Source of the DNA: a virus
Virus record (IMG/VR): IMGVR_UViG_3300020446_000004
Coordinates: 14,570 to 78,569 of that record
Direction: 5' to 3' (one strand)
Length of the DNA: 64,000 nt
The translations under genes were made by a program, and so were the position numbers. The notes below the pieces were generated by a model. The model was not told where the DNA came from. It saw nothing but the letters and a program-made list of their open reading frames with translations, and made no database searches. Numbering within the stretch: the first letter of the stretch is position 1; each line of letters opens with the position of its first letter. Of the stretch, positions 25,289 through 46,399 are shown one piece after another.

Positions 25289-25990
25289 ATGCGTAGAATT
25301 AACACAGGAACAGTAGGAAGACCGCTACTTGCAAGACTGGTAAGTATTGATAATAAAATATCAAGCCTTGTTCCGAATGAAAATATTACAATTGAACCAA
25401 ATGGTTCAGGTGATGTTATAATACCTAGTAATCCTCAACTATTAGTACAAAACACAGATAACTCTACAACTACTGCAACAGGTGGAGCAGTGTTTAGTGG
25501 AGGTATTGGTGTAGCAAATAACATTTATTCGGGTGGTAATATAAATTCCACAGGACATTTAACAACACAATATCTAACAGCGGCAAATTCAACTCATATG
25601 ACTATACCAAGTGGTACAACAGCACAGCGACCTGGTTCTCCGACAGAAGGCATGGTGCGTTTTAACACTGATTATGGACATTTAGAATGGTACAACGGCA
25701 CAAGTTGGACAGTAGGTGGTTTCCAAGATGTTACTGTATCATCAAGCAGAACAACATTAAGTTGGCAAACAAATTGGGTACAAGGAAACTATACAGTTAC
25801 ATTACCAAGTGCGCCGGCAAGAGGTGATAGAGTAAGATTTTTCTTAGTAAGCGGTTCTAACATGACTGTTGCAAGGAATGGTAAATTAATTAACAGTGAT
25901 GCAAGTAATCTAACAGTTACAACAGAGGACGCGGCTTTTGAATTAGTGTTTAACAATGACACATACGGATGGCGAATCTTTACAATCTAA
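25289..25990 (+). CDS. Short tail-fibre adaptor protein
   Basis: PSGTTAQRP...GMVRFNTD module plus C-terminal TLPSAPARGDRV...VARNGKLI...GW domain of the type seen in T4-like long-fibre proteins. Confidence 0.65.
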   Translation: MRRINTGTVGRPLLARLVSIDNKISSLVPNENITIEPNGSGDVIIPSNPQLLVQNTDNSTTTATGGAVFSGGIGVANNIYSGGNINSTGHLTTQYLTAANSTHMTIPSGTTAQRPGSPTEGMVRFNTDYGHLEWYNGTSWTVGGFQDVTVSSSRTTLSWQTNWVQGNYTVTLPSAPARGDRVRFFLVSGSNMTVARNGKLINSDASNLTVTTEDAAFELVFNNDTYGWRIFTI

Positions 25991-26002
25991 TAGGAGTTTT
26001 GA

Positions 26003-26785
26003 ATGGCCACATATGAAAGTTATAAAAAAGTCACAAACGAACAGATTATTGACGGTACTGTTACTGAAGATAAACTTGGTACCGATGTAAGACATAGATT
26101 ATGCACTAAATGGTTAATAGGCAACGCTTGTCGTTGTTCTGCAGGGTGTTGTTGTTTATGGACAGTACCTGCATGTACTAGACGTGTTTATTTTGAACTT
26201 TGGGCGGCAGGAGGCAATGGCCAAGGTGCATGCTCATGTAACAGATGTCACCATTACCAAGGTGCTGGTGGCGGTTCTTACAATTCAAAAATGGTTTCAA
26301 CTACACCCGGATGCCAATACAGAATGTGTGCAGGTGGGGTATATCGTTGCCTAAGTAGAAACTGCTCATCATGTAATGGTTGTATATCTTATGTTTGCGG
26401 ATACAATGCATGTCAACTTTGTACAGTTGGCGGACGTTGTGCAAATGCAAATACAGATTGGACACATTATTGTATGAGTTGTTGGACCTGTTGTATTGCA
26501 CCAGGATGCGGCACAGGTAGAGGTGATTTTCATATTATGAGTCACACTGGGCATTTTAGCGGAATATTTAACTGTCATTGTCACCATCAATATGTAAGAC
26601 CAACAGCGGCTCCTTTCCTAGGAGGAAATGTTGCAACATCACAATCTGTGTGTTGGATACGCTGTGGTTGTTGGATTGCACCTCCAGGACACGGTGGACA
26701 AGGTGCTATGACATCATACTGTGGACGTTGTTGTGGACAAGGTGGTACAGGTGGACCAGGAGTTGTAAAATTAACATTTACGTAA
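26003..26785 (+). CDS. Cys-rich glycine-rich-domain fibre protein 1
   Basis: 260 aa, 33 Cys by manual count; WTVP...ELWAAGG.G...GGTGGPGVVKLTF scaffold. Confidence 0.7.
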   Translation: MATYESYKKVTNEQIIDGTVTEDKLGTDVRHRLCTKWLIGNACRCSAGCCCLWTVPACTRRVYFELWAAGGNGQGACSCNRCHHYQGAGGGSYNSKMVSTTPGCQYRMCAGGVYRCLSRNCSSCNGCISYVCGYNACQLCTVGGRCANANTDWTHYCMSCWTCCIAPGCGTGRGDFHIMSHTGHFSGIFNCHCHHQYVRPTAAPFLGGNVATSQSVCWIRCGCWIAPPGHGGQGAMTSYCGRCCGQGGTGGPGVVKLTFT

Positions 26786-26795
26786 GGAATAATTA

Positions 26796-27575
26796 ATGGC
26801 TACATATGCAAGTTATAAGAAAGTACACGGTGATCAATTCGTAAATGGTACGTTAACGGATAATGACATCAATTCAAATACTTTGAATAATTTTGGTGTA
26901 AAATGGTTTCATGGTATTCCATGCAGATGTTCATCTGGTTGTTGCTGTAATTGGACAGTGCCAACAGGTGTATGTAGAATGACAATTGAACTATGGGGAG
27001 CAGGAGGCAACGGAGCTGGTGCTTGTTCATGTAATAGATGTCATCATTTCAAGGCTGCTATGGGAGGAAGTCATAACACAAAAACCATTGCTACTGCACC
27101 GGGTTGTACATATAGTGTATGTGCGGCAGGAGTATACAGATGTTTAAGCCGTGAATGCACAGGTTGTAACGGTTGTACAACATATATGAACGGTTATAAT
27201 TTAAGCGGATTCTGTGCATGCGGAGGCTATAGATCAGAAGCTAATACAGCATGGTCAAATGGGTGTTTTGGAACAAATGCATATTGTAGATGTCCTACCC
27301 ATAACAACGGAGATATGTATGTGGTATCACAAAATCCTGCATTTAGTACAGCAGGCACATACTGTCATTGTCACCCACAAGAAATTCATCAAGGTGTTGC
27401 ACCTATCATAGGAGGTATATCCAGCCAAGGTATTAGACAATGTTGGATGCGTTGTGCTTGTTGGAGTGTTCCATACGGCACAGGAGGACAGAGTGCAATG
27501 AACACATTCTGCGGACGTTGTTGCGGTCAAGGAGGCACCGGTGGCGGCGGCTTAGTTAGGATTACTTATATTTAG
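26796..27575 (+). CDS. Cys-rich glycine-rich-domain fibre protein 2
   Basis: 259 aa, 28 Cys by manual count; paralog of its neighbours (CRCSxGCCC, GACSCNRCHH, YRCLSRxC, CGRCCGQGGTGG). Confidence 0.7.
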   Translation: MATYASYKKVHGDQFVNGTLTDNDINSNTLNNFGVKWFHGIPCRCSSGCCCNWTVPTGVCRMTIELWGAGGNGAGACSCNRCHHFKAAMGGSHNTKTIATAPGCTYSVCAAGVYRCLSRECTGCNGCTTYMNGYNLSGFCACGGYRSEANTAWSNGCFGTNAYCRCPTHNNGDMYVVSQNPAFSTAGTYCHCHPQEIHQGVAPIIGGISSQGIRQCWMRCACWSVPYGTGGQSAMNTFCGRCCGQGGTGGGGLVRITYI

Positions 27576-27583
27576 GATAAAAT

Positions 27584-28393
27584 ATGGCAAGTTATAGAAG
27601 TTACAAAAAAGTTACAAGCAGTCAAATTGTTGATGGTGCAGTTGATTCAAATAATTTTGTCAACGGTGTACGAGATAATTGGTGTGTAAAATGGACATAC
27701 GGAAATCCTTGTAGATGTTCTGCAGGATGCTGTTGTTTGTTTACTATGCCGTCAAATACTAGAAATGCAACATTTGAACTTTGGGGTGCAGGCGGTAACG
27801 GCAATGGGGCATGTTCATGTAACAGATGTCATCATACAAAACCACCAGGAGGTGGTGCATACACAAGCAAGCACGTACAGACTAATGCTGGATGCACATA
27901 CAGAATGTGTGCCGCAGGAGTTTATAGATGCTTGAGTAGAGAATGTTATGGATGTAACGGCTGTAGTTCTTTTGTTTGTGGATATGGATTATGTGTCTGT
28001 GCATGTGGCGGGCAATTAGGCTGTGCAAACACTGCATGGACTGATCAGTGTCATAGTACTATGCCATACTGTGTTAGACCAGGATGTAACGGTACAAGTT
28101 CAAGTGGAGATTACGTAGGTTATACACACGGTGGTAACTTCCAAGGACAGTCATCATTTATGTATCCTGGATGGGCTTGCCACTGTTGGAAGCATAATGG
28201 GCATTCAACAGGTGCAGTAAGATTAAACACAGGATATGCAGAACAAAATTCAAACGTATGTTGGATTAGATGTGGTTGTTGGATTGTACCCTACGGAATG
28301 GGTGGACAATCAGCAACATCAAACTATTGTGGTAGATGTTGTGGCCAGGGTGGAACCGGTGGTCCAGGACTAGTGAAACTGACGTACTTTTAA
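27584..28393 (+). CDS. Cys-rich glycine-rich-domain fibre protein 3
   Basis: 269 aa, 31 Cys by manual count; same conserved Cys motifs. Confidence 0.7.
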   Translation: MASYRSYKKVTSSQIVDGAVDSNNFVNGVRDNWCVKWTYGNPCRCSAGCCCLFTMPSNTRNATFELWGAGGNGNGACSCNRCHHTKPPGGGAYTSKHVQTNAGCTYRMCAAGVYRCLSRECYGCNGCSSFVCGYGLCVCACGGQLGCANTAWTDQCHSTMPYCVRPGCNGTSSSGDYVGYTHGGNFQGQSSFMYPGWACHCWKHNGHSTGAVRLNTGYAEQNSNVCWIRCGCWIVPYGMGGQSATSNYCGRCCGQGGTGGPGLVKLTYF

Positions 28394-28400
28394 ATAAATA
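28391..28400 (+). promoter_or_regulatory. Overlapping T4-type late promoter cores (TAAATAAATA)
   Basis: Directly upstream of the AAGGAG SD and ATG 28422. Confidence 0.5.
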
Positions 28401-28421
28401 TATTAACAAGGAGAAAACATT

Positions 28422-29150
28422 ATGCCAATGGTACAATTTGAATATACATACGATATACCGAATGAATTGTGTGTTGATCATACGTTTACTGATGGAAAAA
28501 CGCGGACAGCTACATATGACGGTCCAGACAAACTTTTCTTCATTGTAAACAATGCAACGGGCAAAGAAGAATTAGGACCTATTACTGAGATAGAAAAAAA
28601 TGACGGCAGACCAGTGCCAGATGATTGTAGATACGTAGAAATCGACTGCATTAAAAATCCAGTATTATGTCAACTTAGAGGACCTATTATTGACGAAATG
28701 GAAGAGGATCATACTGGAGAAGCAACGCCAACAGGAGCAAAAGATATAACAGGATATGCAAAATTTACATATCAAACACCTGTACTTCCTTATCAATTTA
28801 TAGATAGAGAAAAGATTACGTTTGCCGAAGATGGTACACCTACTTTACCTACTAGAGAACCTAGAGATACTGTCATGGGAATAGACGTTGAAAGAGATCT
28901 TACATGGGATGATGTAAGAGCAAAAAGAGATTCATTGTTAAAAAACAGTGATGCAGAAATTGTTGATGACATGCCAACTGATCTAAAAAATGCTTGGAAA
29001 GATTATAGACAGAGACTGCGTGACTGGCCTAATACAATGCAATCAAATGGCATTCCACCATTGTTTGCTTATTACATGGAACCAATACAAGTTGGTGCAG
29101 ATCCAGAAACAGGAATGATAGATCCAGATACAACATCAATTATTATGTAA
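28422..29150 (+). CDS. Tail fibre assembly chaperone with extended N-terminal domain
   Basis: C-terminal WDDVRAKRDSLLKNSD...DMP...AWKDYRQRLRDWP matches the phage tail assembly chaperone signature. Confidence 0.75.
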   Translation: MPMVQFEYTYDIPNELCVDHTFTDGKTRTATYDGPDKLFFIVNNATGKEELGPITEIEKNDGRPVPDDCRYVEIDCIKNPVLCQLRGPIIDEMEEDHTGEATPTGAKDITGYAKFTYQTPVLPYQFIDREKITFAEDGTPTLPTREPRDTVMGIDVERDLTWDDVRAKRDSLLKNSDAEIVDDMPTDLKNAWKDYRQRLRDWPNTMQSNGIPPLFAYYMEPIQVGADPETGMIDPDTTSIIM

Positions 29151-29154
29151 TGTT

Positions 29155-29180
29155 AAAGCGAGGGTAAGTCTCTCGCTTTT
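29155..29180 (+). terminator. Intrinsic terminator
   Basis: AAAGCGAGGG-TAAGT-CTCTCGCTTT stem-loop ending in a T run, just after the chaperone stop. Confidence 0.7.
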
Positions 29181-29204
29181 ACTCCTTTCCTAAAAATTTA
29201 CCAA

Positions 29205-29241
29205 TAAATATCTTGCATTATCAAATATCTTGTGTTATACT
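29205..29241 (+). promoter_or_regulatory. Tandem late (TAAATA) and sigma70-type promoters for the enzyme cluster
   Basis: TAAATA 29205-10; TTGCAT 29213-18, 17-nt spacer, TG-extended TATACT 29236-41; SD AAGGAG before TTG 29263. Confidence 0.7.
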
Positions 29242-29262
29242 TAACACTATAAGGAGTTTATT

Positions 29263-30285
29263 TTGACAAGATCTACTGCATTTTTTATCAACGGAGGAGC
29301 AGGCAGAGTTATCTGTTCTATTCCTGCATTTGAGCTATACCAAAAAGAAAATCCCAATGATGACTTTATAATTGTTTGTGAAGCAGGTATGGATTTTTAC
29401 AAAGGACATCCTACCCTTCATAACAGAGCATATGACCATTGGCACAAAGGATTATTTGAAGAACATATAAAACATAGGAATTGTATTACACCAGAACCAT
29501 ATAGAATATGGGAATACTACAATCAAAAATGTGATCTTGCACAAGCATTTGATATTGAAATAAATGGAGAAGGTGTTCGCAAATTAGACAAACCAAATAT
29601 CTATATAAACAAACAGGAAATGGTGACTGCGGCATCAATAGTAGATGAAGTAAAACAAAAAACTGGAAAAGACAAAGTTTTAGTTGTTCAACCTTTTGGA
29701 AGATCTACAGAAACACACGGCGATTTTATAATTGATCCTACAAGCAGAAGTTTCCAGCTAAACAATATTGTTGATATAATTAATATTCTTAAAAAAGAGT
29801 ATGGCGTTATTATAATGAGTGAAATACCTGTACCTTTAGAAGAAAGTGAAAACACAAAGTATCCTGTTGCACAACCTCAAATTCCAGAATTAAGAATTTG
29901 GTCAAGCATTATTGATGTAGCTGATCATTTTTTAGGGTGTGACAGTTTAGGACAACATATGGTAAAAGCATTAGGCGGCACAGCAACTATTGTAACAGGA
30001 AGCACATACCCTATCAATATTTCATATCCTGATGATCCTAATTTTGATATTATTGACGTAGGTGAAGGAAAAAGATTATACGCACCTATACGTTTGACAA
30101 TGGAAGAAGAACAAGACAGGCATAACGATGAAGTTATGGAACTTACAGAAAAACAAATAGAAGAAATATGCAACAGTGTAAGAAAAGTTTTAGGAAAAAG
30201 CAGTGTTAGTAAAACTCCAGACACAAAAAAACAAATGTCTAAGTTGATACCAGGTAATAGTAATTTATCCGGAGATAAAAAATAA
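29263..30285 (+). CDS. GT-B glycosyltransferase, GT9 (ADP-heptose heptosyltransferase)-like
   Basis: N-terminal GGAGRVICSIPA, central VVQPFG and C-terminal HFLGCDSLGQHMVKALG correspond to GT9 motifs (G.GD....P, DSG..H.A.A); sits in an ADP-heptose gene cluster. Confidence 0.65.
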   Translation: MTRSTAFFINGGAGRVICSIPAFELYQKENPNDDFIIVCEAGMDFYKGHPTLHNRAYDHWHKGLFEEHIKHRNCITPEPYRIWEYYNQKCDLAQAFDIEINGEGVRKLDKPNIYINKQEMVTAASIVDEVKQKTGKDKVLVVQPFGRSTETHGDFIIDPTSRSFQLNNIVDIINILKKEYGVIIMSEIPVPLEESENTKYPVAQPQIPELRIWSSIIDVADHFLGCDSLGQHMVKALGGTATIVTGSTYPINISYPDDPNFDIIDVGEGKRLYAPIRLTMEEEQDRHNDEVMELTEKQIEEICNSVRKVLGKSSVSKTPDTKKQMSKLIPGNSNLSGDKK

Positions 30286-32090
30286 TGAGTCAATGGATTG
30301 CGGCAATAACAAGAGGTCATAACGGAGGCGTCTGCTTACTTAAGGATGGCAAAATTGTATTTGCAATCGAAGAAGAAAGATTAAGTAGGCAAAAATATGA
30401 TGGCGGACCATATGCAAGTATGGTAAAAATTTTAAATTATACAGATAAAATTGACTTTTTAGTTATTGCACACACTCAGCCACTTGAAGAAACAGCAGGT
30501 AAAGTTGACTTTACTGGTGACGATGTTTATACAGGACTTGCACGTAAACTTGGATTAATTGATAACAGCCCTAGTGTAGATGTGCTTAACCACCCGCAAG
30601 TAGTAGACCTAAGTCATATACATCATAAGTTACATGCGGCCTGTGCATTTTATAGAAGTGGATTCGAAACAGCTACATCGGTTATTGTTGATGGAGCTGG
30701 TACATTTATGCCTGCACAAATGGATGGCTGGGATAATATGTTATACGAATTAGAAAGTATATTTACATGCGAATATCCATATAATATAAAAACTGTTTGG
30801 AAACATTTAGGTGGTAACGGACCATTTAGAGCGGCACACGTTCCAGAAATGACAAGCGAAAAATTTGACGAAGAAGGAACACATGATGTTATTATTGATG
30901 ACGGAGCAGGTATTGTAAAAGCATATGAGGCTGTTACACAATACTGTGGATTTACCGCTATTGAAGCAGGTAAAACTATGGGGCTTTCTCCTTATGGTAA
31001 ACCAAACGAAAACATACCACCTATATATCATAATGCAGGCGGCAAATGGACAGTAGCAAATGCAAATCTTATTAGGCCTACATATCCTAATGGTGCGTTA
31101 GTTAATGAAAACTTTTTTGATGAATTAATTACACCACAAAATACTCCGCAAAATGAATTAGTTGATTTAGATAACAGAAGAGATCTAGCATATGCAGTGC
31201 AGACACAGAGTCAACAACAAGTTTTAAAACTTATTTTGAATGCAGTAGAGCGTACAGGTAACAAAAATATTGTTTTAAGTGGAGGTTATGGACTAAATTG
31301 TGTTGCAAATTATTATTACTTAGACACGTTAAAAGATATGGATATAAACTTGTATGTTGAACCAATATCAAGTGATGCCGGTACAGCAATTGGTGCCGCT
31401 TACATTGCATATCATCAAACAACACAGAACAAAAAAGTATTACCATTTGGCGAAAGTTTATATTTAGGTTTAAATTATGGATATGATAACAAAGAAATTG
31501 GACACCTAGCAGATGACTACAATGCTACATTAGAAAAAGTAGAAATAGAAGATGTAGTAAAATTAATGCGAGAAAAAAATATTATTGCTATGTTTCAAGG
31601 ACGTTCAGAAGCAGGTCCAAGAGCATTAGGTAACAGAAGTTTAATGTACGACCCAACAGATCCTAAAGGCAAAGATCATGTCAACAAAGTTAAGCGTAGA
31701 GAATATTTCCGTCCGTTTGCTGGGACCATTTTAGCAGAACATGCAGAAGAATGGTTTGATATGAGAGGCATGAAAGATTCACCACATATGATGTATGCAA
31801 TGAACTGCCAACCAGGTGTCGAAGAAAAAATTCCAAGTATTATACACGTTGACGGCACATGCCGTATACAGACGGTAACAAGAGAACAGAATCCATTATA
31901 CTATGACTACATTAATGAATTCTATAAACAGACAGGTGTTCCTATTATATTCAACACATCATTTAACTTAGGTGGAGAACCGTTAGTTGAAACATTAGAT
32001 GATGCTTTTAGAACTCTTGCTAATAGCGATATTGAATATCTATACATAGCAGAACACAAAATTTTAGCAAAGGTAAAAAATGTTAGTTAA
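30285..32090 (+). CDS. Carbamoyltransferase, NodU/CmcH family
   Basis: GHNGGVCLL..G.IVFAIEEERLSRQK, HHKLHAA, VDGAG, EAGKTMGLSPYG, SGGYGLNCVAN, DAGTAIGAA, EAGPRALGNRS, VKRREYFRPFA, HVDGTCRIQTV, NTSFNLGGEPLV. Confidence 0.92.
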   Translation: MSQWIAAITRGHNGGVCLLKDGKIVFAIEEERLSRQKYDGGPYASMVKILNYTDKIDFLVIAHTQPLEETAGKVDFTGDDVYTGLARKLGLIDNSPSVDVLNHPQVVDLSHIHHKLHAACAFYRSGFETATSVIVDGAGTFMPAQMDGWDNMLYELESIFTCEYPYNIKTVWKHLGGNGPFRAAHVPEMTSEKFDEEGTHDVIIDDGAGIVKAYEAVTQYCGFTAIEAGKTMGLSPYGKPNENIPPIYHNAGGKWTVANANLIRPTYPNGALVNENFFDELITPQNTPQNELVDLDNRRDLAYAVQTQSQQQVLKLILNAVERTGNKNIVLSGGYGLNCVANYYYLDTLKDMDINLYVEPISSDAGTAIGAAYIAYHQTTQNKKVLPFGESLYLGLNYGYDNKEIGHLADDYNATLEKVEIEDVVKLMREKNIIAMFQGRSEAGPRALGNRSLMYDPTDPKGKDHVNKVKRREYFRPFAGTILAEHAEEWFDMRGMKDSPHMMYAMNCQPGVEEKIPSIIHVDGTCRIQTVTREQNPLYYDYINEFYKQTGVPIIFNTSFNLGGEPLVETLDDAFRTLANSDIEYLYIAEHKILAKVKNVS

Positions 32091-32727
32091 TGGAAAAGAA
32101 GAAAAAGATTTATCAGGCTTTGATTTAGCCGAAGATCAAATGATTGTTATAGATGACTTGTTCCCACAATATGTGATTGAACATGTACACGATCAAGTTT
32201 TTAATACGTATAGTTGGTTTTATGGACATACTAGTAACTATCCAGAGGATCCAAGAACTGATGTAGGAGCAATACCTGATTGGCCAGAAGTTCCTGCGTT
32301 CAAACAGCAAATTTATCCACCTAACAGTCCAAATGCACATGACTCTAGCTGGAACATGATTTATAATGCAGTTGCACAAATGATTCCTTTTGAATTAGAA
32401 ATAGGAGAAATACTTGTAAACGGTCAGCAATGGATTCATAACACTGTTGAACATACAGATTGTCAATGTGATAATGGTATTAGTTGGATATACTATGTAA
32501 ATAGAGAATGGAAAGAAGAATGGGGCGGAGAAACAATAATTAAGTTAGATGGTGAATGGAAAAAAGTTTATCCAAAGCCAGGACGTATTTTCTTATTCAA
32601 AGGTAAAATTCCACATCACGGATTACCACCAAACGATTCTTACAAAGGACTACGTGCAACACTTGTATACAAAACAATGAGAGCTCAACCATTACCACCA
32701 AAAAATAATCAACCTTGGAGAACCTAA
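32080..32727 (+). CDS. 2OG-Fe(II) oxygenase
   Basis: HTD...YYVN.EW..EWGGET...PKPGRIFLF.G.IPH...R facial-triad pattern. Confidence 0.8.
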   Translation: MLVNGKEEKDLSGFDLAEDQMIVIDDLFPQYVIEHVHDQVFNTYSWFYGHTSNYPEDPRTDVGAIPDWPEVPAFKQQIYPPNSPNAHDSSWNMIYNAVAQMIPFELEIGEILVNGQQWIHNTVEHTDCQCDNGISWIYYVNREWKEEWGGETIIKLDGEWKKVYPKPGRIFLFKGKIPHHGLPPNDSYKGLRATLVYKTMRAQPLPPKNNQPWRT

Positions 32728-33254
32728 TGCATTATGATATGTGGGCAATACCGTTCTTTATAGGACAGGTTGATTTAGAAAAAATTAATATCACCCACAA
32801 ATCGACAGAAAAAATATGGTTAAGCGAAGTCGAATCAAGTTTTGGTAAAGAACACGATATATCGCCACAAACTTTTGAATATTTACAAACTGTTATATTA
32901 GAACTTATGCCTGAAGATTTGATAGGACAAAATCCTAGATTTGGTGAAATCTGGCGTAATACATATAGCAAAACAGATTGGCAAGATATACACATACACC
33001 CGAACTGCCAGTGGAGTTTTATAATTTATGAAAGTGTCCCTAAAGGGAAGACAGTATTTATGAATCCTAATTATAGACTTGTACAAAACCAAATAGGATC
33101 GGGAGGTCATCCAAGATTTCCTTTGGACTTCAGACCAGAATGTAAAAAAGGAGACATTGTTATTTTTCCAAGTATGATAGAGCATTTTGTTATGCCTGGA
33201 AACGAAGGATCGACAGTTTCTGGAAACATATATATGGATTACAATTTTTCATGA
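32727..33254 (+). CDS. Putative 2OG-Fe(II) oxygenase, TIGR02466-like (HxH type)
   Basis: W.N.Y...DWQDIHIHP...GDIVIFPSMIEHFV...TVSGN. Start moved to ATG 32727 (GGAG SD, TAATG overlap) from the track start 32715. Confidence 0.7.
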   Translation: MHYDMWAIPFFIGQVDLEKINITHKSTEKIWLSEVESSFGKEHDISPQTFEYLQTVILELMPEDLIGQNPRFGEIWRNTYSKTDWQDIHIHPNCQWSFIIYESVPKGKTVFMNPNYRLVQNQIGSGGHPRFPLDFRPECKKGDIVIFPSMIEHFVMPGNEGSTVSGNIYMDYNFS

Positions 33255-34399
33255 AAGTTCTTGTTATAGGTGATGTAATATTAGACAAGTATTTGTATGG
33301 TACTAGTAAAAGGATTAGTCCTGAAGCTCCTGTACCTGTAGTAAGTTTTACTGAAGAAAAGACTAGTATGGGAGGAGCGGCATTAGTTTATGAAAATTTA
33401 AAAAGTTTAGGAGTAGACGTTACGCTATGTAATACAGGACAGCCTAATAGTGTAAAAACAAGAGTCATATGTGACGGACATTACATAACAAGAATAGATG
33501 ATGACAAACAGGCTGACGGTGATGCTGTTTTACAAATAGTAAAACAATCAGACTTTAGTCCTTATGATATAGTAATACTAAGTGACTATAATAAAGGATC
33601 ATTGACACAAGCAGAAAAAATTATAAAACATATCAATAAATTTGGATGTAAAATTATTGTAGATCCAAAGACAGATATGTCAATATACAAAGATGCTTGG
33701 TTGGTTAAGCCTAACGAAAAAGAATATATTAAATATTTTAAAAATTGGGACGGCAATATTATTACAACTAGAGCTGGCAAAAGTGTCATAGCTAAAATTG
33801 ATAGCAAAGAATATGAAGTACCTGTAGAGACTGTTGAAGTATCAGATGTTACAGGTGCAGGTGATTGCTTTATGGCCGCATTTGTTTATGGATTAACAAA
33901 AGAATACGGATTAAAAAAATGTTTGGAGATTGCTGTCAAAGGGTCTACAGAAAGTGTTAAACATGCAGGTACTTATATACTTAAAAGAGAAGATGTTGAA
34001 CACACTGTAGTATTTACTAATGGTGTGTTTGATATACTACATATTGGCCATTTAAAGCTTCTAAGACACGCTAAAACGCTTGGAAATAGGCTAATAGTGG
34101 GTATTAATAGCGATAGTAGTGTAAAACGCTTAAAAGGCAATTTAAGACCCATTAACGGACAAGACACCCGCAAGGAAAGCCTCTTAGAGCTTGGTTTTGT
34201 TGACGATGTAATTGTGTTTGAAGAAGATACACCATTACAGTTAATAACCAAATTAGAGCCAGATATTATAGTAAAAGGCGGAGATTATACATTTGATACT
34301 GTGGTAGGAAATCATTTAGCAAAAGTTGTTATTTTTCCTACAGTTGAAGGACATAGTACTACTAGGATAATAGATGAAGATATTAATTACAGGTCATAA
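33251..34399 (+). CDS. hldE: Bifunctional heptose-7-phosphate kinase / heptose-1-phosphate adenylyltransferase
   Basis: VIGDVILDKY..G...RISPEAPVPV, LSDYNKG, VDPK, DVTGAGD (PfkB); FTNGVFDILHIGH, GINSDSSVKRLKG..RP, VKGGDY, GHSTT (nucleotidyltransferase). Confidence 0.93.
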   Translation: MKVLVIGDVILDKYLYGTSKRISPEAPVPVVSFTEEKTSMGGAALVYENLKSLGVDVTLCNTGQPNSVKTRVICDGHYITRIDDDKQADGDAVLQIVKQSDFSPYDIVILSDYNKGSLTQAEKIIKHINKFGCKIIVDPKTDMSIYKDAWLVKPNEKEYIKYFKNWDGNIITTRAGKSVIAKIDSKEYEVPVETVEVSDVTGAGDCFMAAFVYGLTKEYGLKKCLEIAVKGSTESVKHAGTYILKREDVEHTVVFTNGVFDILHIGHLKLLRHAKTLGNRLIVGINSDSSVKRLKGNLRPINGQDTRKESLLELGFVDDVIVFEEDTPLQLITKLEPDIIVKGGDYTFDTVVGNHLAKVVIFPTVEGHSTTRIIDEDINYRS

Positions 34400-35177
34400 T
34401 GGATTTATAGGACAAAATTTAATGTCCTATTTAGAAACAAAACACGAAGTTGCCGGATATGATTTTCATCCAGAGAACTTGCCTCTTGTAAAGGATTACG
34501 ACTGGGTCATACATTTAGGAGCAATAAGTTCTACTACAGAAACAGACGTTGATAAAATAATTCTACACAACTATGAATTTTCAAAATGGTTGTTTAATCA
34601 ATGTAATCAGTATAATGTAAACATGCAATATGCATCGAGTGCAAGTGTTTATGGTAACACAAAACATTTTAAAGAAGATGGACCCAGTGATCCTAAAAGT
34701 CCATATGCTTGGAGCAAATATTTATTTGATAGATGGGTAACGGGTATTCACCCAAAAATTATTTTTCAAGGACTTAGGTATTTTAATGTTTACGGACCTC
34801 ATGAAGAACACAAAGGCAATCAAGCAAGCCCTATTACAAAATTTACTAAGCAAGCAGAAGAAGAAGGCAAAATTACTATTTTCACAGATAGCGAAAACTA
34901 CAAAAGAGATTTTGTATGCGTTTCTGATGTGTGTAAAATACATGAAAAAATGTTTGACATAAAAGAAAAAGGCATATATAATATTGGTACAGGAAAAGCT
35001 GTAAGTTTTAAACAAGTAGCAGATTTAATTGCAAAAAAATATAATGCAAAAATAAAATATATTCCTATGCCTGAAAACTTAAAACATCAGTATCAAAATT
35101 ATACTTGTGCTAATTTAGGAAAATTAAATACTGTATTAAAATTTAAGTTTCAAACTATTGAGGAGTATTTAAAATGA
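34374..35177 (+). CDS. hldD: ADP-L-glycero-D-manno-heptose 6-epimerase (extended SDR)
   Basis: ITGHNGFIG, HLGAISSTTE, YASSASVYG, YAWSKYLFD, GLRYFNVYGPHEEHKG.QAS, RDFV.V.DV, YQNYTCA. Confidence 0.88.
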   Translation: MKILITGHNGFIGQNLMSYLETKHEVAGYDFHPENLPLVKDYDWVIHLGAISSTTETDVDKIILHNYEFSKWLFNQCNQYNVNMQYASSASVYGNTKHFKEDGPSDPKSPYAWSKYLFDRWVTGIHPKIIFQGLRYFNVYGPHEEHKGNQASPITKFTKQAEEEGKITIFTDSENYKRDFVCVSDVCKIHEKMFDIKEKGIYNIGTGKAVSFKQVADLIAKKYNAKIKYIPMPENLKHQYQNYTCANLGKLNTVLKFKFQTIEEYLK

Positions 35178-35692
35178 GTACAAGTCTTTTTATAGTTGAT
35201 AATTTTTTACCAAAACCAGATCTTGTTAGAGAACAAGTTATAAAACTTGATTTTCCTACTAGTGGAGAATTTCCGGGCAAGAGATCTCATGCAACAGATA
35301 ATGATTTTCAAATGTACTGCAAAACAAGATTTGAAGATATCATGGGTGTAAAAATCACACAATTCTTAATGGATAGTTTTTGTTATCAATTATGTTACGA
35401 AGGAGAAGAAACATGGGTACACAAAGATCCTTCTATGTGGGCGGGTATATTATACCTTACACCAAATGCTCCTATCGAAGCAGGCACTGGAATATTCAAG
35501 GAAGATAAACAAGGAGAATTTGAACTTGTTGATGCAATAGGAAATGTTTACAATAGGCTTGTGTTGTATAGAGGTGATTTACTACACAGAAGTTTGCTAT
35601 CTGGATTTGGAAACACACCAGAAAGCGGCAGGCTTACACAAGTTTTCTTCTTTGATGTTCGAGAACAACCAGCAGGAGGTTGGGGAGAATGA
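35174..35692 (+). CDS. Putative 2OG-Fe(II) oxygenase (DUF6445-like)
   Basis: IVDNFL..PD.VR, FPGKR, WVHKD, WAGILYLTP, NVYNRLVLY.G.L.H, RLTQVFFF. Confidence 0.65.
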   Translation: MSTSLFIVDNFLPKPDLVREQVIKLDFPTSGEFPGKRSHATDNDFQMYCKTRFEDIMGVKITQFLMDSFCYQLCYEGEETWVHKDPSMWAGILYLTPNAPIEAGTGIFKEDKQGEFELVDAIGNVYNRLVLYRGDLLHRSLLSGFGNTPESGRLTQVFFFDVREQPAGGWGE

Positions 35693-36291
35693 CAACTGAT
35701 GCTATTTGGCCAACCTGGATTTATTCAACTGTAATCGAAAATCATAAAGAAGTTTATGAACAATTTTTACCTATGTTAAATGACGATAATAATTTTGATA
35801 GTCCATGGACATACGGAGATTGTAAAAGTAGTATACGAAATAAAAGCAATGATAAATTTCCGTGGAATACATGGTTTGAAGCAATAAAGCCCTATGTAGA
35901 CGAGCATTTACAATCATTAGAACCTACAATGCCTTTTGTAATACATAGTGATGAGTTTTGGGTAAACGTTTACAGCAAAGGTGATTTTCAAGAAAGTCAC
36001 GAACATGCATTTCCTGGAAGGTCTTTAAGTGCAATTTATATTATGGAATTGGACAAAAATACAGAAGGCGGAGACTTAGTTTTTGAATGTCCTAATTTTG
36101 CAACTGTCAAGTTTAGTGGGTTAAATAGAATTTTCGATAAATGGCAGTATCAACATATCATGCCCAAATTAGAAAACGGCACATTAATTTTATTTCCTAG
36201 TTGGTTGACACATTATGTGTTACCAATGAGATCAGAAAAACGTAGAATAACAATAGCGGCAAATTTTAGTATAAAGGAAGCAAATGAGTAG
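35689..36291 (+). CDS. Putative 2OG-Fe(II) oxygenase, TIGR02466-like (HxH type)
   Basis: WVNVY..GDFQESHEH, LSAIY, LILFPSWLTHYV, RITIAANF. Likely start ATG 35689 (ATGA overlap with the upstream stop). Confidence 0.75.
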   Translation: MTTDAIWPTWIYSTVIENHKEVYEQFLPMLNDDNNFDSPWTYGDCKSSIRNKSNDKFPWNTWFEAIKPYVDEHLQSLEPTMPFVIHSDEFWVNVYSKGDFQESHEHAFPGRSLSAIYIMELDKNTEGGDLVFECPNFATVKFSGLNRIFDKWQYQHIMPKLENGTLILFPSWLTHYVLPMRSEKRRITIAANFSIKEANE

Positions 36292-36646
36292 ATTAAAAGG
36301 TACAGTTGAAAAAGGTTGGGGTAGTGAAACAATATTTGCAACTAACGATTTATATTGCGGAAAATTATTAAATTTTAATACAGGTGCAAAATTTAGCATG
36401 CACATGCACAAAGATAAAGACGAAACATGGTATGTGTTGAGCGGAAAATTTGTTGTAAAAACAATTGATACAAAAACAGCAGACGTTGATGCAGAACCTT
36501 TAGAAAAGGGAGATACATGGCACAATCCTCCAATGCTTCCTCATCAATTGCTTTGTTTAGAACAAGGTACGATTATAGAAGTTAGTACACCAGATAGTAT
36601 AGAAGACAACTATAGAGTTGAAAAAGGAGATAGCCAAGTTGTCTAG
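36284..36646 (+). CDS. Cupin, sugar-phosphate isomerase-like
   Basis: VEKGWGSE...YCGKLL...FSMHMH..KDETWYVLSG...PPMLPHQL...EVST; metal-binding HxH/E/H residues present. Confidence 0.75.
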   Translation: MSRLKGTVEKGWGSETIFATNDLYCGKLLNFNTGAKFSMHMHKDKDETWYVLSGKFVVKTIDTKTADVDAEPLEKGDTWHNPPMLPHQLLCLEQGTIIEVSTPDSIEDNYRVEKGDSQVV

Positions 36647-37448
36647 ATCCCTCTTTATAGGATGTAGTCATACAATGGGATATTTAGATCCAAACCCGCA
36701 CTCAGATGCACCCCCTCAGCCTTGGCAAGATAACAATTACGCAGAATTTTATGCAAAACAAAATAACAAACCTAGTATTATTATGGCTAGTGCTGGAGCA
36801 GGAAACTCTCTATGGCCAAGATTTTTAGCGTATGCGTTCCAAAAATATAATGACATAGATGAAGTATTTGTTCAAAGCACTTACTGGGGAAGATTTGCTA
36901 TTGCAATGAATCCAAATCTAGACGCTTACAATATTTTACCTATTGATTATTTTATAGAAAAAGAAAAAAGTGATGATCTAATTGAAAGATATAGTTTAGG
37001 ATTGTATCAAGATAAGTTTGTAGAATATTATCTTAAACCAGAATCGTATGACTACGACGAACTACCATACAACCGTTATACTGCACCATTTTGTGCTGAG
37101 CCTGATGTCCGACGAAGCAGTCATATGTATATTAGAATGTGGCATTATTCAAACACACATTTAGATCAATATGATTATTTCAAAGATGTTTTGGCATGTG
37201 ATGCTATTTGTAATTATAACAATGTAAAAATGCACTTATGGAATATAAATGATAGATGTTTTATACCAGAACAAACAGGCAATTGGTTAACTAAACTACA
37301 AGCAACTAAAATTGCAAATATAGATGCTATAAGTTTTCTTAAAAAGCATAAGAAAACAATTAAATTAGGTGATACCGAACATTACTCAAAAGAAACACAT
37401 GAGATAATTGCAAAAGAATATATACCTTATATAAAGGACACAAAATGA
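36639..37448 (+). CDS. SGNH/GDSL-like protein
   Basis: FIGCSHTMG near the N-terminus, GAGN, and C-terminal DTEH. Likely start TTG 36639 after an AAGGAG SD. Confidence 0.55.
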   Translation: MSRSLFIGCSHTMGYLDPNPHSDAPPQPWQDNNYAEFYAKQNNKPSIIMASAGAGNSLWPRFLAYAFQKYNDIDEVFVQSTYWGRFAIAMNPNLDAYNILPIDYFIEKEKSDDLIERYSLGLYQDKFVEYYLKPESYDYDELPYNRYTAPFCAEPDVRRSSHMYIRMWHYSNTHLDQYDYFKDVLACDAICNYNNVKMHLWNINDRCFIPEQTGNWLTKLQATKIANIDAISFLKKHKKTIKLGDTEHYSKETHEIIAKEYIPYIKDTK

Positions 37449-38023
37449 AAGACGATTACAACGGAATAGAAGAATATCCTCTTGCATACGAAAAGGATTA
37501 CTGCGACGAAATTATAAAACATTTTGAAGTAATGGCACGAAATGCAGTTACATATAAACAAGATAATCTAGATGTTAATCAAGACGAACGTATTGTTTTT
37601 GATTGGGCACATACACAAAATCAATATCATTATGATTTCAAATTGTGTGATTACTTTTATCAAAGATTGCATGAAGTATACACAAAATCCTATATGGAAA
37701 AATATCAAATGCTAAAAAATAGTGAACAGCATAGTCCAAAAGGTATGAGCATACAAAAATCAAAGCCACATCAAGGTTATCATGCCTGGCATGCAGAAGC
37801 TGCAGATATAGGGTCTTGTTCAAGGGTAATGAATTATATGTTATATCTTAATGATGTAGAAGAAGGCGGTGAAACAGAATTTTTATATCAAGGTGTAAAA
37901 TTAAAACCTGAAGCTGGAAAACTAGTTATTTTCCCCACAAGTTATATGTATCCACATAGAGGAAATCCTATTTACAAAGGAGAAAAATATATAATTACAG
38001 GCTGGTATACATATGATAGATAA
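37445..38023 (+). CDS. 2OG-Fe(II) oxygenase, prolyl-4-hydroxylase-like
   Basis: GYHAWHAE, MLYLNDVEEGGETEF, KPEAGKLVIFP..Y.YPHRG, KYIITGW. Confidence 0.85.
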   Translation: MKDDYNGIEEYPLAYEKDYCDEIIKHFEVMARNAVTYKQDNLDVNQDERIVFDWAHTQNQYHYDFKLCDYFYQRLHEVYTKSYMEKYQMLKNSEQHSPKGMSIQKSKPHQGYHAWHAEAADIGSCSRVMNYMLYLNDVEEGGETEFLYQGVKLKPEAGKLVIFPTSYMYPHRGNPIYKGEKYIITGWYTYDR

Positions 38024-38624
38024 GTATAAAGTCGCTAATGCAACTCCAGTAATTCCTACAAAATGCGTAATAGGTTTAGATAGAGATGGAGTAATTAATC
38101 AAGATTTAGGTAATGAGCAAGGATGTAGATATGTAACTTCGCCTAATGAATTTAAACCAATTGAAGGTAGCTTAGAAGCTGTGGCAAAGATTAGACAACT
38201 AGGGCATAGAATAGTAATTATAACAAATCAAGGCGGTATACAAAAAGGTATAATGTCTGCTGAAGATGTTGATAGTGTTCATGATCATATGCTTGAGTTA
38301 TTAGGGCAAGCAGGTTGTCCTAGTATTGATGCAATATATTATAGCGAAAGTAGCCAAAAAAATGATATGTATGCAAAGCCCAATGCAGGCATGTTTAAAA
38401 GATGCGCCAAAGAACATAAAGATATTAAGTGGAGCCAAGGATTTTTTGTTGGTGATAAAATGAGCGATTTACGTGCCGCAGTCAAAGTAGGTGCAAGACC
38501 TGTATTGGTTAGAACCGGTTATGGACGTGAGACTGAAAAACAGCTAAATAAGTATACATACAAGGATATCAAAAAGAAAACCTATGTATTTGACGATTTA
38601 GCTGATTTTGCAAACCAGCTTTGA
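38013..38624 (+). CDS. gmhB: D,D-heptose 1,7-bisphosphate phosphatase (HAD IIIA)
   Basis: LDRDGVIN, IITNQGGI, AKPNAGM, VGDKMSDL.AA...G..PVLVRTGYG. Confidence 0.88.
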   Translation: MIDKYKVANATPVIPTKCVIGLDRDGVINQDLGNEQGCRYVTSPNEFKPIEGSLEAVAKIRQLGHRIVIITNQGGIQKGIMSAEDVDSVHDHMLELLGQAGCPSIDAIYYSESSQKNDMYAKPNAGMFKRCAKEHKDIKWSQGFFVGDKMSDLRAAVKVGARPVLVRTGYGRETEKQLNKYTYKDIKKKTYVFDDLADFANQL

Positions 38625-38971
38625 TAGGAGAAAAATATATGCCATATGCAGTAAAAAAACCGCATCCAACAGTGGACAACGTTATGCTTTATCACACATG
38701 GGATCCTGATGGTGACGGTTACGAAGAAATTAGAAAATTCCCAGATCAAGAAAAAGCAAACGTATTTGCAGCCGAACACGCAGGCGCAGTCGTGGTAGAA
38801 ATAGGTTACGAAATTGATCAATCAGATCAAATGATAGCTGATAGATATGCACAGTCAATTGATCCAGCAAGACCAGAAGGTAGTATTACACCATCAACTA
38901 ACGCAGAAGCAGAACACAGATTCGAGCCAGGACCACTTAGAGCTTTCACTGCACACGGCATTTTAGGTTAA
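38621..38971 (+). CDS. Hypothetical protein
   Basis: Acidic ORF filling the gap between gmhB and 38982; true start probably ATG 38639 after an AGGAG SD. Confidence 0.55.
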   Translation: MIGEKYMPYAVKKPHPTVDNVMLYHTWDPDGDGYEEIRKFPDQEKANVFAAEHAGAVVVEIGYEIDQSDQMIADRYAQSIDPARPEGSITPSTNAEAEHRFEPGPLRAFTAHGILG

Positions 38972-38981
38972 GGACTAACCT

Positions 38982-40502
38982 ATGGCAATACCAGTAGCTC
39001 CCGTATTCGATAGGATTAGATTAGTACCTCGTCCAACTGACTTTTTGGACAGGAATACAGGAGCCAGTGGCGAGCTTTTCTACGAGAAGGAAACAAAAAC
39101 ACTTCGTGTATACAATGGGTTACAACGAGGTGGTTTTGAAGTTCTCAGCGAAGAAAGATTAAGAATAAACACTGCTAATTTAGAGGTTGCTACAGTAAAA
39201 TATAATACATTTGTAGGCAATGACGGAGTAGGAAACAAATATTATTTTAACAATGATTTTTCAAACTATGCACCTGCTTTAACTTTTGTAGTAGGATACA
39301 CATATAGATTTGATCAATCAAATTATACCAATTTGTTTTATCCTAATCCACAAGGAGGCACGTTAAATCCTCATCCTTTAGAATTTAGTGTGCAAGAAAA
39401 CGGCACATTAGGTGGAGGCGTCCAATATACTGAAGGTGTTGTATATCTTTTAGATGACGCAGAAGTAACTAGGGAAAAATACCTAAATGATTTTACAAGC
39501 TCTACAACTAGGGCAATACAAATAACAATCACAACAAATACACCAAATACTCTTTACTATTACTGTACTAGACACACAGGAATGGGCGGAGAAATAACAG
39601 TAGGTATGCCAGGATCAGGCACAGGCTCCGGCGGAGCAAGTATTACAGCAAGTGATTCGGCACCTACAGAACCTAGTGCAGGAGCACTATGGTATAACAG
39701 TGCAACTGGATATTTGTATGTATATGTTGATGACGGTGATAGTCAACAATGGGTACAGCCTGTTGCTGGTAACGTGTTTAGTGGATTGTATAATGATTTA
39801 TTAGGCAAACCAACTTTCGCTACAGTTGCCAACACAGGCGATTGGAACGATATACAAAATAAACCTACTATACCAGCTAGCCTTACTGATTTAGGAATTT
39901 CCGACGGGACTGCAAACCAAGTTCTAACCACAGATGGTGCAGGCAATTTTACATTTGAAGATGGCGGAGGAGGATCTTCATATGATCAAAGTCTTAACAC
40001 GACAGATGATGTTACATTTGACGAAATTACTGCAACAACAAGTTTAACTGCACCTAATGTAATTACAAATGGTGTAGGCGTAACTAACTTTACAAGTTCT
40101 ACAAGTTTAACACTATCTGCTACAGATGGCGTGTTTCTTTCTGGAATAGCAAGATCTAGCGAAATAGTAAACACACTTACTGGAGCAACTTCAACAGTTG
40201 ACCACAGTCTAAACTTAGGTAGTGTTTGGAACCATACTAGCATTGCCGCAAACTTTACAGCAAACTTCACAAATGTACCAACAACTACTGACAGAACTAT
40301 TTCGGTTGCATTAATATTAAATCAAGGTGCATCACCATATCTTCCTAATGCTGTTCAAATAAACGGAGGCACTGAAAGTATAAACTGGGAAGATGCATCT
40401 GCACCGACACCTAATGCAAACCAAACAGATGTTGTTGTCTTTACACTTGTACGTACAGGCGGTTCATGGAATGTATTAGGGAGTCTAACAACTTATGGCT
40501 AG
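38982..40502 (+). CDS. Virion structural protein with a cupredoxin-like domain
   Basis: TYRFDQS...HPLEFS...LYYYCTRHTGMGG; P..G.LWYNS..G.LYVY..DGDS.QWV linker; C-terminal fibre-type domain. Confidence 0.65.
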   Translation: MAIPVAPVFDRIRLVPRPTDFLDRNTGASGELFYEKETKTLRVYNGLQRGGFEVLSEERLRINTANLEVATVKYNTFVGNDGVGNKYYFNNDFSNYAPALTFVVGYTYRFDQSNYTNLFYPNPQGGTLNPHPLEFSVQENGTLGGGVQYTEGVVYLLDDAEVTREKYLNDFTSSTTRAIQITITTNTPNTLYYYCTRHTGMGGEITVGMPGSGTGSGGASITASDSAPTEPSAGALWYNSATGYLYVYVDDGDSQQWVQPVAGNVFSGLYNDLLGKPTFATVANTGDWNDIQNKPTIPASLTDLGISDGTANQVLTTDGAGNFTFEDGGGGSSYDQSLNTTDDVTFDEITATTSLTAPNVITNGVGVTNFTSSTSLTLSATDGVFLSGIARSSEIVNTLTGATSTVDHSLNLGSVWNHTSIAANFTANFTNVPTTTDRTISVALILNQGASPYLPNAVQINGGTESINWEDASAPTPNANQTDVVVFTLVRTGGSWNVLGSLTTYG

Positions 40503-42090: not shown

Positions 42091-42091
42091 A

Positions 42092-46384: not shown

Positions 46385-46399
46385 CAATGAGAGGTTATT

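Follow-up and report, generated by a model that had tools for sequence, protein, structure and literature searches.

Linkage of cysteine-rich fibre-tip genes with a GT9-like transferase and a carbamoyltransferase in a marine cyanomyovirus: a candidate virion-fibre tailoring module

Results

We analysed a 64,000-nucleotide (nt) stretch of viral DNA (hereafter the window), which is part of the 78.5-kb IMG/VR fragment IMGVR_UViG_3300020446_000004 (estimated genome completeness, 22%). The region under study belongs to the structural module, within its tail-fibre part, where three cysteine-rich fibre-tip genes and a fibre-assembly chaperone gene are followed by an operon of overlapping enzyme genes that opens with a GT9-like glycosyltransferase (hereafter the transferase) and a carbamoyltransferase. 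The source of the window is a T4-like marine cyanomyovirus. Ranked by identity to the transferase protein, the nearest isolates are the Synechococcus phages S-SSM7/S-SSM6a and Sf-FS3 (60–63%), followed by S-CAM1/S-CAM3 (50%) and the Prochlorococcus phages P-SSM2/P-SSM5 (47%); a megablast search of the cluster DNA against phage records gave no match. All the genes named in a preliminary description of this DNA were found on the + strand at the positions it gave.

The three tip genes, located at 26003–26785, 26796–27575 and 27584–28393 (+), encode Cys/Gly-rich paralogues of 260, 259 and 269 amino acids (aa) with cysteine contents of 12.7%, 10.8% and 11.5%, respectively. The first and the third match phrog_4205, the first also being placed by family alignments and the second by its glycine-rich fibre domain fold. 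Motifs in the three paralogues include WTVP, ELWGAGGNG and CGRCCGQGGTGG, and the family alignments show a WTVP...EIWGGGG motif, as in the phage glycine-rich fibre/tail-tip domain. The AlphaFold2 model of the 26796–27575 product, built from 61 homologues (pLDDT 84), has the fibre of cyanophage Pam3 as its best Foldseek match (7ypx, E = 5e-7, TM 0.58–0.60), followed by the tail tip of mycobacteriophage Bxb1 (9d93, E = 1e-5) and the glycine-rich ALK/LTK TG domain; the matches found in BFVD (n = 210) are mostly glycine-rich domain or tail fibre proteins. Because of these Pam3, Bxb1 and BFVD fold matches, we regard the Cys-rich proteins as fibre-tip domains with an unusual cysteine load, which agrees with their preliminary designation as Cys-rich fibre proteins. 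The gene that follows them (28422–29150, +) codes for a tail-fibre assembly chaperone, as had been proposed (PF16778, Phage_tail_APC, E = 2.8e-11; tail fiber assembly families of PHROG).

The first gene of the operon (29263–30285, +; phrog_8954) encodes a divergent GT-B glycosyltransferase of the GT9 (heptosyltransferase-like) family, assigned from fold, family profile and motif. The assignment needed the fold and a wider family alignment, since sequence searches alone failed: the protein has no Pfam match, PF01075 included, at E = 0.01 or better, and PDB sequence searches with the transferase and with a close-family profile returned noise only. By contrast with these searches, the top Foldseek matches of the AlphaFold2 model (pLDDT 80) are all GT9 enzymes (3tov, WaaC, TibC and WaaF, E = 4e-9 to 1e-6), and its VIA-align Z scores are 21.3 with 3tov, 19.1 with WaaF, 17.5 with WaaC and 17.1 with TibC, versus at most 12.3 with non-GT9 GT-B folds. 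In a wide alignment that includes distant members, 20 of the 45 family members match PF01075 (best E = 1.2e-8), and the family profile reaches WaaF and WaaC at E = 0.02–0.07. In the same alignment, D227 and H232 are invariant and S228 nearly so, and this D227-S228-x-G-x-H232 stretch (DSxGQH) aligns to the DSGLMH of WaaF and to the nucleotide-sugar motif of WaaC; the conserved N-terminal loop of the family reads GGxGR. With GT9-only fold matches, PF01075 in relatives and an aligned nucleotide-sugar motif, the predicted GT9-like identity, which was also the preliminary label, is well supported. A weak NCBIfam match to the PlsC acyltransferase (E = 2e-4) was dropped after the fold result.

The transferase is not a member of the TibC/AAH group, since a conserved Cys4 iron-finger site and the TibC N-terminal extension that supports the dodecamer are both missing: the wide alignment contains no invariant or nearly invariant cysteine, and the extension was not found in the model, the structural alignment starting at TibC residue 91. 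An exhaustive HMMER search retrieved 515 cluster representatives of the family among 1.84 billion proteins; judging from these sequences, the family is a small, mostly viral offshoot. The transferase is encoded in more than 570 IMG/VR contigs.

The second gene of the operon (30285–32090, +) encodes a NodU/CmcH/TobZ-type O-carbamoyltransferase (PF16861, E = 1e-59; PF02543, E = 1e-27). Its Carbam_trans domains score 97.9 and 200.9 bits, above the Pfam cut-offs of 24 and 27, which bears out the preliminary assignment. Its relatives in the PDB are 7xb6 and the sugar or hydroxyl O-carbamoyltransferases TobZ, NovN and GdmN (E = 1e-44 to 1e-59 for the last three).

The window proteins were mapped by BLAST onto related loci covering several cyanophage genera: 80 IMG/VR loci seeded on the transferase (61–99% identity) and 78 seeded on the Cys-rich family, about 130 in all. 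Upstream of the transferase, in the transferase-seeded loci with at least 4.5 kb of flank, the Cys-rich gene(s) and the chaperone gene were detected by BLAST in 50 of 52, and the remaining two have a 287-aa open reading frame with 14.6% Cys at the equivalent site. Downstream (at least 4 kb of flank), the carbamoyltransferase gene comes next after the transferase gene in 70 loci out of 70, the gap between them having a median of 108 nt and accommodating up to about 2 kb of inserted genes. Seen from the tips, every Cys-seeded locus with enough downstream room contains the transferase, the apparent exceptions all running off the contig, and three divergent Cys-rich queries searched against 50,697 phage records matched only phages that have the transferase. 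The same order (tip(s), chaperone, transferase, carbamoyltransferase) is present in S-SSM7, Sf-FS3, P-SSM2 and S-CAM3, which belong to different genera. It is also present in the single-cell contigs AG-345-P14 and O18, where the transferase is 38–39% identical to that of the window and the adjacent proteins contain 9–11% Cys; these Cys-rich proteins have no BLAST similarity to those of the window, so that the link is one of composition and position.

The genes for ADP-heptose synthesis, HldE and HldD (described below), behave otherwise. Of the 28 loci with 9 kb available on both sides, 8 have them on the same strand and 8 on the opposite one, and 12 lack them within 10 kb; on larger contigs they were found about 18–25 kb away. 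Both are on the same contig as the transferase in four of five large contigs, and HldD is present in all complete cyanophage genomes with a transferase gene. The heptose cassette of S-SM2 and P-TIM68 is part of large glycan clusters, close to hli genes, which include other glycosyltransferases but not this transferase. Given the stable order of the former genes and the shuffling of the latter, the invariant unit consists of the tip(s), the chaperone, the transferase and the carbamoyltransferase, the heptose cassette being a movable supplier. The preliminary description had proposed co-occurrence of the cluster with the Cys-rich genes as a check of its interpretation: the transferase/carbamoyltransferase pair does stay with the Cys-rich tips and the chaperone wherever the flank allows, but the heptose-synthesis genes vary independently.

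Only two isolates other than cyanophages have a detectable homologue of the transferase, the Aeromonas myovirus HJ05 (28% identity, E = 5e-14) and the Vibrio N4-like podovirus SBP1 (22%, E = 1e-7). The gene for the HJ05 homologue stands between a fibre-like gene, which it directly follows, and the tail sheath gene, and that for the SBP1 homologue between a 'tail fiber protein' and a 'tail family protein'. Heptose genes were not found near either homologue, as would be the case if the hosts of HJ05 and SBP1 provided ADP-heptose. The tail proteins beside the homologues (locus L165, 5300–6979, in HJ05; locus L166, 7742–10519, in SBP1) contain 23 and 41 cysteines, i.e. 4.1–4.4%, and the neighbouring proteins 0–2%, a pattern reminiscent of the Cys-rich association of cyanophages. 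A hidden Markov model of the Cys-rich family detected neither these two tail proteins nor the Cys-rich proteins of AG-345-P14 and O18, so that for HJ05 and SBP1, too, the link is one of composition and position.

All 12 genes at 29263–38624 overlap, by 1–29 nt, and no membrane segment is predicted in any product of the module. The gene coordinates thus uphold the description of the locus as a 12-gene overlapping cluster, and domain and membrane-segment scans of the cluster proteins uphold the statement that it lacks membrane, flippase and lipid A/3-deoxy-D-manno-octulosonate (Kdo) components. The chaperone gene is followed by a terminator-like hairpin read from the sequence (29155–29180, +; a GCGAG/CTCGC stem, then TTTT), and similar arrangements of a hairpin and a T-run precede the transferase gene in related loci. 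Beyond the hairpin lies a promoter region (29203–29241, +), in which AATAAATA at 29203–29210 matches NATAAATA, the published late promoter of cyanomyoviruses (PMC2984593), and is directly followed by a sigma-70-like element (TTGCAT at 29213–29218, 17 nt, TATACT at 29236–29241). ATAAATA is depleted in the window (16 copies vs 34.7 expected), as is TATAAATA (1 vs 9.6), and its + strand copies (e.g. those at 802, 5338, 28394, 29204, 46378, 57966, 58703, 60804 and 61317) lie mostly in the short gaps just before the starts of + strand (structural) genes. A late-promoter word kept out of other places would be expected to show such placement and depletion. Among 91 distinct sequences upstream of homologous transferase genes, 68 retain the motif, and several of the others have CTAAATA. 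The hairpin and the conserved late motif thus delimit the operon as a separate unit with a late-type promoter. The cluster had been credited with promoters of its own, in the plural; one clear promoter region was found, in 29151–29262, and the plural was not confirmed. As for the timing of expression, genome-wide data for P-SSM2 were not found, the one study consulted being a reverse-transcription quantitative PCR analysis of three marker genes, which are not module genes.

Two further features of the operon sequence deserve mention. A perfect sigma-70 consensus (TTGACA, 17 nt, TATAAT; 12/12) occurs inside the HldD gene at 34954–34982 (+), about 190 nt before the start of the next gene at 35174, possibly serving as a promoter within the operon for its distal half. 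The GC content is 41.6% at 26001–28000, over the Cys-rich tip genes, which are the most GC-rich part of the region, versus 32–35% at 32001–38000, over the enzyme operon; this difference may reflect different origins or codon constraints.

Three genes of the operon belong to the ADP-heptose pathway. The gene at 33251–34399 (+) encodes an HldE-like fused heptose-7-phosphate kinase/heptose-1-phosphate adenylyltransferase (PfkB and CTP_transf_like domains; NF008454, E = 1e-82, 278 bits vs a cut-off of 521), that at 34374–35177 (+) an HldD-like ADP-glyceromanno-heptose 6-epimerase (PF01370; TIGR02197, E = 4e-72, 243 bits vs 274.6) and that at 38013–38624 (+) a GmhB-like HAD phosphatase, i.e. a heptose 1,7-bisphosphate 7-phosphatase (NF006506, E = 3e-40, 137.6 bits vs 178; TIGR00213, E = 2e-24). 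The presence of HldE, HldD and GmhB is therefore borne out at the family level, the best NCBIfam matches being equivalogs; since all these scores are under the curated cut-offs, the three proteins are divergent members of their families. The small cupin noted previously (36284–36646, +) was recovered by Pfam (Cupin_2), with a MannoseP_isomer match at the C-terminus, and accompanies HldE and HldD in all the contexts compared. The SIS domain of GmhA was looked for but found neither in the cluster nor in any of five related phage genomes, with a control positive in 9 of 14 genomes, and the cupin is a candidate sugar-phosphate isomerase that would substitute for the absent GmhA. In relatives, the genes called 'phosphoheptose isomerase' (T4-GC306, about 110 aa; e.g. 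locus L001, 22708–23043, which is SSSM7_130 of S-SSM7, with equivalents in P-SSM2, S-CAM3, S-SM2 and P-TIM68) match a HAD-type capsule biosynthesis phosphatase (TIGR01689, E = 9e-6); this label is probably a long-propagated misannotation, to judge from the sequences.

Five further genes of the operon encode proteins of the 2-oxoglutarate (2OG)-Fe(II) oxygenase type (Oxy_3 twice, Oxy_5 twice, DUF6445), in agreement with the number and the diversity of subtypes given before. They are an Oxy_3, FlmC-like oxygenase at 32080–32727 (+; PF13640; NF052475, FlmC family, E = 3e-15, below cut-off), an Oxy_5/TIGR02466-like oxygenase at 32715–33254 (+; PF13759, E = 3e-10), a 2OG-oxygenase-like DUF6445 protein at 35174–35692 (+; PF20043, E = 6e-10), whose Sf-FS3 homologue is annotated with a prolyl 4-hydroxylase (P4H)/2OG dioxygenase domain, an Oxy_5 oxygenase at 35680–36291 (+; PF13759, E = 7e-15; weak PDB matches to the uncharacterised 3bvc and 2rg4) and a P4H-like oxygenase at 37445–38023 (+; PF13640, E = 3e-14). 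The last one matches the Bacillus anthracis P4H (3itq/5hv0, E = 1e-9) and the PBCV-1 P4H (5c5t, E = 6e-5); peptidyl-prolyl 4-hydroxylases, its nearest relatives, are protein-modifying enzymes. The 276-aa product of 36618–37448 (+) had been labelled SGNH-like, which was not confirmed: it has no Pfam or NCBIfam match, an Atlas lead points to DUF6071, and a possible SGNH/GDSL-like character is suggested by a GCSHT motif and by a sub-threshold Lipase_GDSL_2 match in one relative (E = 0.009). Finally, a gene for a 116-aa protein (38621–38971, +) overlaps the GmhB stop codon and follows GmhB in close relatives; its product has no family match in Pfam, PHROG and NCBIfam scans, and the gene is probably the last (13th) of the operon.

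The oxygenase content varies among related lineages, some of which also have inserted GDSL-like genes. Flavin-dependent tryptophan-halogenase-like genes and a gene for a 4Fe-4S protein are inserted among the genes for the chaperone, the transferase and the carbamoyltransferase, or behind them, in some related loci (locus L065, 16708–18186; locus L073, 8695–9921 and 13576–14364; locus L001 of S-SSM7, SSSM7_125). These insertions widen the set of possible tailoring reactions.

The module is flanked by virion genes on both sides. Upstream, giant fibre genes (10034–24942; phrog_9851 and related families) are followed by a gene for a small, 106-aa fibre-associated protein (24958–25278, +; phrog_11338, tail fiber protein, E = 4e-11), which almost all related loci have in this position ahead of the tip genes, and by a gene for a 233-aa virion or fibre-like protein (25289–25990, +; many PHROG matches, including virion structural proteins), which is syntenic in relatives. 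Downstream, virion genes do resume right after the cluster, as had been stated, with fibre/baseplate-like genes at 38982–47251 (PHROG matches), the first of which (38982–40502, +) encodes a fibre or baseplate-like structural protein (phrog_708, baseplate wedge subunit; phrog_9729, tail fiber protein). Among these fibre genes, that at 40495–42090 encodes a 531-aa protein matching a PHROG protease family (phrog_3677, E = 3e-31), and its P-SSM2 counterpart is annotated with a subtilase domain. The next one, at 42092–46378, encodes a 1428-aa structural protein in which the glycine-rich motif recurs in a Cys-poor version (…IVCIGGGGGGAG…), so that Cys-rich and Cys-poor forms of one kind of tip scaffold are both encoded in the window.

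Discussion

The gene content, conservation and position of this module are best accounted for, in our opinion, by a virion-fibre tailoring function, in which heptose from phage-made ADP-heptose is transferred onto the Cys/Gly-rich tips and O-carbamoylated, with hydroxylation alongside. We give this interpretation, which was already that of the preliminary description, a probability of roughly 45%. It is strengthened by the tip linkage, the tail neighbours of the distant homologues, the late motif and the solubility of the enzymes, but not by the heptose genes, which vary independently.

From the gene identities (at the family level), the folds, the linkage and the promoter motif, we infer a donor, an acceptor, an order of reactions and a role for the cupin, as follows. 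HldE and the GmhB-like and HldD enzymes would form the ADP-heptose pathway, the cupin isomerising sedoheptulose-7-phosphate in place of GmhA, and the hosts would not supply ADP-heptose. The soluble GT9-type transferase would act in the cytoplasm, moving heptose onto the Cys/Gly-rich tips encoded just upstream or onto other fibre proteins nearby, either while the chaperone assists assembly or earlier. The TobZ/NodU-type enzyme would then cap the heptose by carbamoylation, the Pseudomonas lipopolysaccharide (LPS) core offering an example of such carbamoyl-heptose, and the P4H-like and other 2OG oxygenases would hydroxylate fibre residues or the sugar; in relatives, the tryptophan-halogenase-like enzymes may add further changes. 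The predicted outcome is a chemically decorated receptor-binding tip. In its boldest form, which we hold to be slightly less probable, a dedicated module expressed late would place carbamoyl-heptose on the Cys-rich tips, possibly via hydroxylated residues or even cysteine, and some lineages would hydroxylate or halogenate them further.

The hosts are informative in this respect. Both heptose and Kdo are missing from the LPS of the marine Synechococcus strains CC9311 and WH8102, the latter being the host of Sf-FS3 (PMC4515613), so that the canonical GT9 acceptors are absent and it is plausible that the phage must make its own donor. Together with the P4H-like hydroxylase, the late motif and the soluble enzymes, these heptose- and Kdo-free hosts fit a decoration of proteins. 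The virion proteomes available in the literature (S-SM1, S-PM2, Syn9) are those of phages without this module.

Several observations weigh against tailoring of the fibres. The heptose genes may be inverted with respect to the transferase or lie far from it, and the S-SM2 and P-TIM68 clusters imply at least one other use of heptose in cyanophages. The loci compared are not independent, because most come from one viral family with a conserved order of structural genes, and the HJ05 and SBP1 homologues, which lie outside this family of loci, are supportive rather than decisive because their homology is weak. The fold of the transferase suits an acceptor of the LPS type and one of the protein type equally, WaaC and TibC being tied. 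Moreover, GGAGR in the window protein may take the place of the N-terminal GD motif of WaaC, with its catalytic Asp13. In the clade of the window, the sigma-70-like element overlapping the late motif may, on sequence grounds, drive early or 'middle' expression of the operon. The oxygenases constitute weak evidence here because 2OG oxygenases, like halogenases, are scattered through cyanophage genomes (PMC3037559), and carbamoyl-heptose is documented only in LPS cores (PMC8005017).

Some of these points would suit remodelling of the host envelope, in which the transferase, using phage-made ADP-heptose, adds (carbamoyl)heptose to a host glycolipid or surface polysaccharide so as to block superinfection or the sticking of progeny to lysed cells, the position in the tail module being a matter of convenient late co-expression. 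The biochemically defined GT9 enzymes, TibC/AAH excepted, act on LPS cores, and the top structural matches of the transferase are 3tov, WaaF and WaaC; the Pseudomonas LPS core has carbamoyl-heptose along with the WapO carbamoyltransferase (PMC8005017); the heptose genes of S-SM2 and P-TIM68 lie in multi-glycosyltransferase glycan clusters; and genes of this kind were annotated as LPS genes by Sullivan et al. in 2010 (PMC3037559). Envelope remodelling is thus a serious rival, but we consider it less probable than fibre tailoring. A Kdo/heptose acceptor is lacking in marine Synechococcus LPS, and membrane, flippase, lipid A and Kdo components are lacking in the module; the transferase/carbamoyltransferase pair is never apart from the tips and the chaperone, although the sugar-synthesis genes do move; the distant homologues are in tail modules too; and the late-promoter motif fits poorly, because exclusion should act early. 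Should the acceptor be a host glycan after all, the strict linkage with the Cys-rich tips would still need an explanation.

It is even less probable that the enzymes tailor a small molecule or peptide into a soluble heptose natural product late in infection, the virion not being the target. The nearest solved relatives of the carbamoyltransferase (TobZ, NovN and GdmN) do tailor antibiotics, all the enzymes are soluble, and the halogenase-like, 4Fe-4S and GDSL-like genes of relatives make up a mix typical of secondary-metabolite tailoring. However, domain scans of the window cluster turned up no non-ribosomal peptide synthetase, polyketide synthase, aminocyclitol synthase or maturase of ribosomally synthesised and post-translationally modified peptides, and such a product would leave unexplained both the adjacency of the tips and chaperone and the tail-module position in unrelated phages.

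Hypermodification of DNA or nucleotides, with the carbamoyltransferase and the glycosyltransferase acting on hydroxymethylated bases of the phage DNA, is very improbable: a phage carbamoyltransferase of the same superfamily does make 5-carbamoyloxymethylcytosine (PMC8670742) and 2OG oxygenases can in principle oxidise methylated bases, but a ThyA-type hydroxymethylase (PF00303) is absent from four complete cassette-bearing relatives (control positive), the oxygenases are of the P4H, Oxy_5 and DUF6445 types, no DNA precedent is known for a GT9 fold combined with an ADP-heptose pathway, and the late motif and tail-module position misfit a modification made at the time of replication. TET/JBP (PF12851) gave no match in the same four relatives either, but its control gave none in any genome, so that this negative is uninformative.

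If fibre tailoring is confirmed, virion glycosylation would be known for the first time from a T4-like or marine phage, and the autotransporter heptosyltransferases would no longer be the only GT9 enzymes directed at proteins. Protein heptosylation would extend beyond enterobacterial adhesins, and the soluble transferase/carbamoyltransferase pair would become available for glyco-engineering. Host recognition and adsorption of widespread ocean phages would then hinge on post-translational chemistry that is invisible in protein sequences, with consequences for host-range prediction, models of phage–host coevolution and the reading of heptose and 2OG-oxygenase genes as 'auxiliary metabolic genes'. 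Since cultured isolates carry the module (S-SSM7, Sf-FS3, P-SSM2, S-CAM1/3), the proposal is directly testable.

Comparison with known systems

The genes themselves are not new: they have long been known, and since 2005–2010 cyanophage studies have listed them as 'LPS genes' with no clear purpose, perhaps 'stuffer DNA'. The novelty lies in the linkage of the Cys-rich tip(s), the chaperone, the GT9-like transferase and the carbamoyltransferase. The cyanophage 'LPS gene' clusters (T4-GC 302–308; P-SSM2, S-SSM7, S-SM2 and P-TIM68) comprise the same gene families. Sullivan et al. (2010) described GC304, 305, 307 and 308 as 'LPS genes' found together in three phages, with a probable functional link, and left open whether they function (PMC3037559); the label 'heptose-related LPS synthesis' recurs in genome announcements (PMC7378029). 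The 2010 analysis neither separated the tail-embedded transferase/carbamoyltransferase core from the mobile heptose cassette nor noted the linkage with Cys-rich tips, and it assigned no substrate.

The pairing of a heptosyltransferase with a NodU-type carbamoyltransferase is found in the Pseudomonas LPS core, where GT9 enzymes and WapO (PA5005) give 7-O-carbamoyl L-glycero-D-manno-heptose (PMC8005017). Unlike what is proposed for the phage, the Pseudomonas carbamoyl-heptose sits on the Kdo-lipid A core of the bacterial envelope. This pairing therefore supports the predicted product, yet it also keeps a glycolipid acceptor in play. More generally, the phage transferase resembles the LPS inner-core heptosyltransferases WaaC and WaaF and the Veillonella protein 3tov (all GT9) in its GT-B fold, in its C-terminal D-S-x-G-x-H motif and in having the ADP-heptose pathway encoded alongside, but, unlike WaaC and WaaF, it is below Pfam GT9 detection, is encoded in a phage tail-fibre module and operates in hosts without Kdo/heptose acceptors.

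Among bacteriophages, the sole established precedent known to us is the glycosylation of mycobacteriophage virions (Freeman et al. 2023, Cell Host Microbe; cited in PMC12801897), in which glycosyltransferases encoded among the structural genes reportedly decorate virion proteins. The phages concerned are siphoviruses of Actinobacteria that use other glycosyltransferase families, with the capsid and the tail tube as targets. To our knowledge, that system involves no dedicated nucleotide-sugar pathway, carbamoylation or Cys-rich tips.

A parallel for a protein acceptor lies outside phages, with the bacterial autotransporter heptosyltransferases TibC and AAH, which O-heptosylate TibA and AIDA-I. 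The putative substrates of the phage enzyme are glycine-rich fibre domains and not autotransporter repeats, and the phage transferase, unlike TibC/AAH, is always accompanied by a carbamoyltransferase. The two systems have in common a GT9-like GT-B fold, the phage model aligning with TibC over 264 residues with a Z score tied with that of WaaC (17.1 and 17.5), and since TibC heptosylates proteins, a protein acceptor has a precedent within this fold. TibC and AAH use ADP-heptose on a secreted or surface adhesin encoded beside the enzyme; we propose that the same logic, an enzyme next to its adhesin, applies to the phage module.

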